From Escherichia coli (GTDB taxonomy: Bacteria; Pseudomonadota; Gammaproteobacteria; Enterobacterales; Enterobacteriaceae): DNA of 64,000 nucleotides. The stretch is from assembly GCF_036507355.1 (NCBI RefSeq), contig NZ_AP027877.1; one strand, given 5' to 3'. Below, piece by piece: positions 40,094-44,446 of this stretch. Position numbers and translations under genes: made by a program. Every line of letters starts with the position of its first letter. The stretch's first letter is position 1. The notes below the pieces were generated by a model. The model saw nothing but the letters and a program-made list of their open reading frames with translations. It did not search any database and was not told the origin of the DNA.

Positions 40094-41761
<1,668 letters not shown>

Positions 41762-41792
41762 TTAAATTCGTATGTTCAGTGTCGTGCGAGGA

Positions 41793-42137
<345 letters not shown>

Positions 42138-42159
42138 TTACGTGGTTTCCCGGCTGGTG

Positions 42160-42200
42160 ACCAGAGAAATGGGGATGAGGCTTCGCCCCTTCAAGGGGGA
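42160..42200 (-). promoter_or_regulatory. sigma-32 heat-shock promoter of groESL (-35 CTTGAA, -10 CCCCATTT)
   Basis: Minus-strand reading TTTCCCCCTTGAAGGGGCGAAGCC...CCCCATTTCTCTGGTCAC; 15-bp spacer. Confidence 0.6.
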
Positions 42201-42361
42201 AAAAGAAAAAAAATTCTGATCAGCACAAAATCGGGTGAAAACCCTGATTCACCTCACATTTCATCGCAATTTCTTCATCGCCGTCATAAGCGAATCTGAT
42301 TGTGCTACCATCGAAAATCTACGCAGTTGCCCAAAATTTGGGCGTAATCGGACATCAACCC

Positions 42362-43618
42362 ATGAGTGGACTCAAACAAGAACTGGGGCTGGCCCAGGGC
42401 ATTGGCCTGCTATCGACGTCATTATTAGGCACTGGCGTGTTTGCCGTTCCTGCGTTAGCTGCACTGGTAGCGGGCAATAACAGCCTGTGGGCGTGGCCCG
42501 TTTTGATTATCTTAGTGTTCCCGATTGCGATTGTGTTTGCGATTCTGGGTCGCCACTATCCCAGCGCAGGCGGCGTCGCGCACTTCGTCGGTATGGCGTT
42601 TGGTTCGCGGCTTGAGCGAGTCACCGGCTGGCTGTTTTTATCGGTCATTCCCGTGGGTTTGCCTGCCGCGCTACAAATTGCTGCCGGATTCGGCCAGGCA
42701 ATGTTTGGCTGGCATAGCTGGCAACTGTTGTTGGCAGAACTCGGTACGCTGGCGTTGGTGTGGTATATCGGTACTCGCGGTGCCAGTTCCAGTGCAAATC
42801 TACAAACCGTTATTGCCGGACTTATCGTCGCACTGATTGTCGCTATCTGGTGGGCGGGCGATATCAAACCTGCGAGTATCCCCTTCCCCGCGCCAGGAAA
42901 TATCGAACTTACCGGGTTATTTGCTGCGTTATCAGTGATGTTCTGGTGTTTTGTCGGTCTTGAAGCATTTGCCCATCTTGCCTCGGAATTTAAAAATCCA
43001 GAACGTGATTTTCCTCGTGCTTTGATGATTGGTCTGCTGCTGGCAGGATTAGTCTACTGGGGCTGTACGGTAGTCGTCTTACACTTCGACGCCTATGGTG
43101 AACAAATGGCCGCGGCAGCATCGCTTCCAAAAATTGTAGTGCAACTGTTCGGTGTAGGAGCGTTATGGATTGCCTGCGTAATTGGCTATCTGGCCTGCTT
43201 TGCCAGTCTCAACATTTATATACAGAGCTTCGCCCGCCTGGTCTGGTCGCAGGCGCAACATAATCCTGACCACTACCTGGCACGCCTCTCTTCTCGCCAT
43301 ATCCCGAATAATGCCCTCAATGCGGTGCTCGGCTGCTGCGTGGTGAGCACGTTGGTGATTCATGCTTTAGAGATCAATCTGGACGCTCTTATTATTTATG
43401 CCAATGGCATCTTTATTATGATTTATCTGTTATGCATGCTGGCAGGCTGTAAATTATTGCAAGGTCGTTATCGACTACTGGCGGTGGTTGGCGGGCTGTT
43501 ATGCGTTCTGTTACTGACAATGGTCGGCTGGAAAAGTCTCTATGCGCTGATTATGCTGGCGGGGTTATGGCTGTTTCTGCCAAAACGAAAAACGCCGGAA
43601 AATGGCATAACCACATAA
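42362..43618 (+). CDS. yjeH: APC-family inner-membrane amino-acid exporter YjeH
   Basis: ATG at 42362 (MSGLKQELGLAQGIGLLSTSLLGTGVF..., 418 aa). Confidence 0.87.
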   Translation: MSGLKQELGLAQGIGLLSTSLLGTGVFAVPALAALVAGNNSLWAWPVLIILVFPIAIVFAILGRHYPSAGGVAHFVGMAFGSRLERVTGWLFLSVIPVGLPAALQIAAGFGQAMFGWHSWQLLLAELGTLALVWYIGTRGASSSANLQTVIAGLIVALIVAIWWAGDIKPASIPFPAPGNIELTGLFAALSVMFWCFVGLEAFAHLASEFKNPERDFPRALMIGLLLAGLVYWGCTVVVLHFDAYGEQMAAAASLPKIVVQLFGVGALWIACVIGYLACFASLNIYIQSFARLVWSQAQHNPDHYLARLSSRHIPNNALNAVLGCCVVSTLVIHALEINLDALIIYANGIFIMIYLLCMLAGCKLLQGRYRLLAVVGGLLCVLLLTMVGWKSLYALIMLAGLWLFLPKRKTPENGITT

Positions 43619-44110: not shown

Positions 44111-44446
44111 AGGTTTCTCCTGTAATAGCAGCCGGTAAAACCCGGCTACCTGAATGGGTTGCGAATCGCGTTCAGCTTATATTGTGGTCATTAGCAAAAT
44201 TTCAAGATGTTTGCGCAACTATTTTTGGTAGTAATCCCAAAGCGGTGATCTATTTCACAAATTAATAATTAAGGGGTAAAAACCGACACTTAAAGTGATC
44301 CAGATTACGGTAGAAATCCTCAAGCAGCATATGATCTCGGGTATTCGGTCGATGCAGGGGATAATCGTCGGTCGAAAAACATTCGAAACCACATATATTC
44401 TGTGTGCTTAAAGCAAATCATTGGCAGCTTGAAAAAGAAGGTTCAC

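Follow-up and report, generated by a model that had tools for sequence, protein, structure and literature searches.

The groE promoter of Escherichia coli sets the supply of the essential chaperonin GroEL/GroES under stress. It is a model promoter of the heat-shock sigma factor sigma-32 (RpoH) and has served as such in kinetic footprinting of open complexes (PMC4496709). The sigma-32 consensus of E. coli comprises a -35 element, TTGAAA, and a -10 element that is given as CCCCATWT or CCCCATNT (PMC6687850, citing Nonaka 2006 and Koo 2009). At groE and grpE, the C-rich stretch is read by region 3.0 of sigma-32 (PMC6687850). Published mutational work on the groE promoter of E. coli names TTG at -36/-35/-34, A-32, C-14, C-13, A-12, T-11 and T-9, the last five of which are functionally important (PMC3441632). 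The operon is described as having two promoters, one for sigma-70 and a strongly inducible one for sigma-32 (PMC8350394). In Salmonella, binding of RpoH upstream of groES/groEL was seen by ChIP-exo (PMC11548764).

Not every source lists the site. The yjeH/groS spacer is absent from the list obtained by genomic SELEX with the RpoH holoenzyme (PMC5493296). The same screen, however, recovered 20 of 322 database RpoH promoters, and because its sensitivity is that low, the absence has little weight. The supplements of Cho 2014 (sigma-factor network) and Kim 2012 (start-site profiling), which are possibly incomplete, contain neither a groS entry nor the expected start coordinate, and full-text literature searches with the promoter sequence string and with 'groSp' gave unrelated matches only.

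The enterobacterial groES 5'UTR is described as two hairpins, which have conserved as well as covariant nucleotides and mask the Shine-Dalgarno sequence and the AUG (Twittenhoff 2020, PMC7337928). As an RNA thermometer it was validated in Yersinia (PMC7337928), after Salmonella (Cimdins 2013, PMC4166951).

The groE promoter in the window and its relation to K-12

By the window we mean the whole stretch of E. coli DNA that was analysed, 64,000 nucleotides in length. The promoter and its operon lie on its minus strand and comprise the following elements:

42206..42215, minus strand (-57..-48): A/T tract AATTTTTTTT, which resembles the distal subsite of an UP element
42190..42199, minus strand: -35 element CCCC-CTTGAA, located by script; CTTGAA = 42195..42190 (-37..-32), TTG = -36..-34
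42175..42189, minus strand: spacer GGGGCGAAGCCTCAT, 15 nt, located by script
42167..42174, minus strand (-16..-9): -10 element CCCCATTT, a C-rich 'extended -10' plus core, assigned by script and consensus
42158, minus strand: inferred +1, the A of GGTCACC, NC_000913.3 position 4,370,616, from the published groE numbering and K-12 coordinate mapping; CA at -1/+1 conserved
41793..42086, minus strand: groS (GroES, 97 aa), first gene of the operon, from the ORF list; annotated groS in E. coli genomes
40094..41749, minus strand: groL (GroEL, 551 aa here), second gene of the operon, from the ORF list; annotated groL in E. coli genomes

The first-pass annotation had pointed to a minus-strand CTTGAA and CCCCATTT, separated by 15 bp and situated some 75-110 bp upstream of the groS ATG. 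Both boxes were found, all inside 42160-42200. Counted from the A of the groS ATG (42086), CTTGAA begins 109 nt upstream and CCCCATTT ends at 81 nt, which agrees with the distance proposed. The -10 element fits the consensus CCCCATWT in eight of eight positions. The -35 hexamer TTGAAG fits TTGAAA in five of six, the deviation being a G at -31 where the consensus has an A. The spacing of 15 nt falls within the range of 13-15 nt seen in orthologous groES promoters. On the opposite side of the spacer from groS, a divergent ORF on the plus strand was identified as yjeH; the two genes are 275 bp apart. That RefSeq has no feature at the promoter site is explained by the fact that promoters are not annotated there.

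A 1-kb query across the region matched 5425 of 5426 complete E. coli genomes, in which the matched stretch bears the annotations yjeH, groS and groL. Promoter plus leader (144 bp) are single-copy in 5425 of the 5426 genomes, with at least 99% identity in 5328. An alignment to K-12 MG1655 revealed one difference in 291 columns; it concerns window position 42345, next to the start of yjeH and far from the promoter. From about -190 to the groS ATG the window equals K-12 MG1655 at every base, and coordinates are converted by subtraction (position in NC_000913.3 = 4,412,774 - window position).

The strain itself is a different matter. At the 3' end of groL (window 40094..40140, minus strand) the gene encodes a GroEL of 551 aa; its K-12 counterpart, of 548 aa, has one GGM repeat fewer. 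This 3' end has a match of at least 99% in only 7 of 5425 complete E. coli genomes, i.e., it is a rare allele, which implies that the window is not K-12. The best 1-kb match of the window to any complete E. coli genome amounts to 99.9%.

The start of transcription was placed with the help of the published numbering. The position numbers of PMC3441632 fit the window sequence only if +1 is 42158, and we therefore infer that the A at this position is the exact start, bearing in mind that the numbers are quoted in a secondary source. The leader would then measure 72 nt to the groS ATG. The conserved CA at the predicted start supports this assignment independently.

Taken together, the site is almost certainly the sigma-32 heat-shock promoter of the groS-groL operon and the same element as the groE promoter of K-12. 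The near-consensus sigma-32 promoter of groESL that had been claimed at the outset is thus supported by the consensus fit, the identity with K-12, the published groE numbering and the conservation upstream of groES. Its sigma-32 dependence and its start site are drawn from the literature and from conservation. According to what is known of the family, sigma-32 RNA polymerase would read CTTGAA (-37..-32) by sigma region 4 and the composite CCCCATTT (-16..-9) by regions 3.0, 2.4 and 2.3, and the holoenzyme would start transcription at the A at window 42158. Heat or unfolded proteins would stabilise sigma-32 and increase its synthesis, and transcription from the groE promoter would rise several-fold.

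Chance, conservation and competing readings

How often such boxes arise by accident depends on how strictly they are defined. The exact motif CTTGAA-N15-CCCCATNT occurs once in the 64-kb window, whereas 0.00 matches are expected from 100 dinucleotide-preserving shuffles. When the spacer is allowed to vary from 12 to 17 nt, the groE site is still the sole match in the window that has no mismatch. More tolerant searches are uninformative. With up to two mismatches and N15, one match is found and 1.6 are expected, a test without discrimination, and with spacers of 12-17 nt and two or three mismatches the counts in the window do not exceed the shuffle expectation. Because the two-mismatch test does not discriminate, the motif signal at groE has to be attributed to the perfect match.

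A weight matrix gave the same picture. To obtain log-odds values, 76 groES promoters from outside Escherichia were used, and the matrix covers positions -39..-32 and -16..-9 plus spacer weights. As orthologues of the groE promoter were used and not unrelated sigma-32 promoters (dnaK and clpB had been considered), the matrix is not independent of the groE lineage. By this matrix, the kind of check that the first-pass annotation had suggested, the groE site ranks first in the window with 30.3 bits; the runner-up reaches 14.8 bits. Twenty shuffled windows had top scores of 15.0 +/- 2.3 bits on average and of 19.8 at most.

A scan for GroES, with one genome per species, yielded 80 loci from Enterobacterales, Orbales, Pasteurellales, Alteromonadales and Shewanella, 79 of which were usable. 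For each locus, the best match to CTTGAA-N12-17-CCCCATNT was sought in the 250 nt upstream of groS. It was perfect in 37 loci, had one mismatch in 34, two in 7 and four in a single one. Accordingly, 71 of the 79 gammaproteobacterial groES loci have at most one mismatch, as compared to 3 of 1580 shuffled controls. Among the orthologues, 47 have a spacer of 15 nt, 29 one of 14 nt and 2 one of 13 nt, with hardly any constraint on its sequence. The -10 octamer also keeps its distance from the ATG (median 81 nt, interquartile range 80-84).

Conservation also extends to positions that had not been searched for. A CC at -39/-38, which is outside the search pattern, is nearly invariant together with CTTGAA, and the CA at -1/+1, likewise outside the pattern, carries about 1 bit at each position. 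In an alignment of 20 species of Enterobacteriaceae, the promoter and the ribosome-binding region stand out as islands of identity, while the remaining spacer cannot be aligned.

Other readings of the site have to be weighed against these data. That the two boxes match by chance and have no promoter function could be argued from the tolerant searches, since with up to two mismatches 1.6 matches are expected per window, and 9 if the spacer is variable. The argument fails at zero mismatches, where none is expected; moreover, the boxes are at the right distance from a heat-shock operon and are kept in 78 of 79 orthologous loci, although spacer and flanks have diverged. The conservation data thus reject a chance match, the probability of which we regard as practically negligible. 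The region could also be a target of sigma-E (RpoE), either instead of sigma-32 or besides it. Genomic SELEX indeed lists the yjeH/groS spacer for the RpoE holoenzyme, with a 4.3-fold signal at map position 4368630 (U00096.2), which corresponds to about window 42060 (PMC5493296), and GGAAAC-N17-TCACC in the leader, judged by eye, resembles a sigma-E promoter. Yet this resemblance is weak, the conserved elements are the sigma-32 boxes, and the resolution of SELEX is in the order of hundreds of bp, so that the RpoE peak may have nothing to do with the boxes. A sigma-E target is therefore highly improbable, if not quite as far-fetched as a mere coincidence.

A housekeeping role deserves slightly more credit. 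The boxes might mainly, or jointly, act as a sigma-70 promoter, with TTGAAG as -35 and a weak -10 nearby, and ensure basal expression of groE at all temperatures. Reports of both a sigma-70 and a sigma-32 promoter at groE (PMC8350394) are in line with this idea, and TTGAAG matches TTGACA in four of six positions. A consensus scan that needs a -35 match, however, finds 0 sigma-70 sites in 41950-42450, the yjeH-groS spacer included, and what is conserved across species is CCCCATNT and not a hexamer resembling TATAAT. Two concrete candidates were considered and discarded: TTGAAG-N17-CATTTC, as CATTTC is a poor -10, and TGGTCA-N17-TAAGCT in the leader, as other Enterobacteriaceae have TACGGG or TGCGGC at this place. 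We consider it very unlikely that the boxes themselves are mainly, or jointly, a sigma-70 promoter. Probably, a sigma-70 promoter does exist near them, without replacing the sigma-32 reading.

The window contains further promoter-like sequences. The second-best sigma-32-like site by mismatch count, CTTGAA-N14-CACAATAT at 44179..44206 on the minus strand, precedes the start of fxsA (44110) by about 70-95 nt. By count, this match is at chance level. The same DNA can also be read as a good sigma-70 promoter, TTGAAA-N18-TATAAG. The fxsA gene is reported to belong to the sigma-32 regulon. A candidate for the yjeH promoter lies on the plus strand, some 50 nt ahead of the ATG of that gene (42362). 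It is the block TTGTGCTACCAT (42300..42311), which has the form of an extended -10 (TGnTAccAT) and shows conservation among the Enterobacteriaceae in which yjeH neighbours groS; the sigma-70 scan missed it because a -35 match is required there.

The upstream A/T tract and the leader

Upstream of the -35 element, the A/T tract at -57..-48 attracts attention. It reads AAATTTTTTT across orthologues and carries 0.9-1.7 bits per position in 78 promoters, although it was outside the search pattern. Its conservation extends from Escherichia to Shewanella and is also visible in the alignment of Enterobacteriaceae. The distal UP-element subsite of sigma-70 promoters, with the consensus AWWWWWTTTTT, is located at about -57 to -47, where the tract sits. 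Like an UP element, the tract probably contacts the C-terminal domain of the alpha subunit of RNA polymerase and would thereby strengthen binding. The accessible literature does not state an UP element at groE.

Just upstream of the tract, at 42234..42253 on the minus strand, the sequence GGTGAATCAGGGTTTTCACC with CGATTTTGTG behind it resembles a terminator hairpin. Its conservation is limited to E. albertii and, in part, Citrobacter. In the groS upstream region, 2 such hairpins compare with 0.8 expected, which is chance level.

Downstream of +1, the leader contains the following predicted elements:

42130..42154, minus strand (+5..+29): hairpin I, GCCGGG...UCCGGC, predicted fold
42088..42116, minus strand: hairpin II, in which ACUUUCU pairs with the Shine-Dalgarno stretch GGAGAGU, predicted fold; the groES RNA-thermometer hairpin
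42099..42095, minus strand: Shine-Dalgarno sequence AGGAG, located by script

The minimum-free-energy fold of the 72-nt leader (42087..42158, minus strand) thus consists of two hairpins, and in the second one the Shine-Dalgarno sequence is base-paired. In E. coli alone, the fold of the whole leader is not unusual (z = -0.76). The two hairpins differ in how they are kept. The block GACTTTCTCAAAGGAGAG-TATCAATG of hairpin II is almost invariant in Enterobacteriaceae. Across the 79 orthologues, hairpin I is kept as a structure but built from unrelated sequences, and its first base lies 2-5 nt (median 4 nt) away from the predicted +1. Its arms are GCCGG/CCGGC in E. coli, GTCGG/CCGAC in Lelliottia, CAAAGA/TCTTTG in Superficieibacter and GGTACTGG/CCGGTATC in Yersinia.

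RNAalifold, applied to a MAFFT alignment of 38 leader sequences, recovered only 5 pairs of hairpin II and no pair of hairpin I. As MAFFT moves the 5' arm by one column between genera, an alignment-free test was used instead. Over the 79 loci, the first 40 nt of the leader average z = -1.72 against dinucleotide shuffles; most loci outdo their shuffles, and in 80% the free energy is -8 kcal/mol or lower. A t-test p-value on these foldings overstates the evidence because the loci are phylogenetically related. A search of Rfam with 41700-42500 gave no match at E<=1; Rfam is without a family for the groES leader.

The predicted leader of E. coli matches the published groES thermometer and is, in consequence, not new. 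At low temperature, its second hairpin would mask the ribosome-binding site and thus render the translation of groES temperature-dependent. Less can be said about what the A/T tract and hairpin I might do beyond this. That the tract is a true UP element for the sigma-32 holoenzyme and that hairpin I, besides its place in the thermometer, stabilises the 5' end of the groESL mRNA is a tentative combination, and we are inclined to doubt it. For hairpin I, the accessible literature makes no mention of a stabilising effect on the 5' end. If true, both roles would add little to what is known of this thoroughly studied promoter.

groE among known heat-shock systems

The heat-shock promoter of groE was already known, and the present analysis changes nothing in its biology. 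Its use lies elsewhere: the site is a convenient positive control, i.e., a consensus sigma-32 promoter that can be called from raw sequence and holds under statistical, comparative and literature checks.

The closest relative is the groE (groSL) sigma-32 promoter of K-12. The promoter sequence is identical, the neighbouring genes agree (divergent yjeH on one side, groS and groL on the other), and the positions of the boxes fit the published numbering. The host strain differs from K-12 by the base change at 42345 and by the extra triplet of GGM codons in groL, but the promoter itself shows no difference.

With other sigma-32 promoters of E. coli, such as dnaK P1, grpE and clpB, groE shares the -35 box, a spacer of 13-15 nt and the C-rich extended -10 followed by ATnT. 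Judged by the published consensus, which served for this comparison, groE ranks among the members nearest to it, with a -10 element that fits in eight of eight positions and a -35 element that contains CTTGAA, whereas many other members deviate.

The groES thermometer is a neighbour of a different kind. The leader resembles the published one in having two hairpins, the second of which masks the Shine-Dalgarno sequence, and in that some nucleotides are conserved and others covary. Unlike the promoter, it is situated downstream of the boxes and would act on translation and not on the initiation of transcription.

Finally, in Firmicutes and many other bacteria the same operon is also under heat control, there by CIRCE/HrcA. 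Their groESL promoters depend on a housekeeping sigma factor and are repressed via a conserved inverted repeat. The groE promoter, in contrast, is used by an alternative sigma factor, and the inverted repeat in its leader keeps its structure and not its sequence. This speaks in favour of an RNA element and against an operator.
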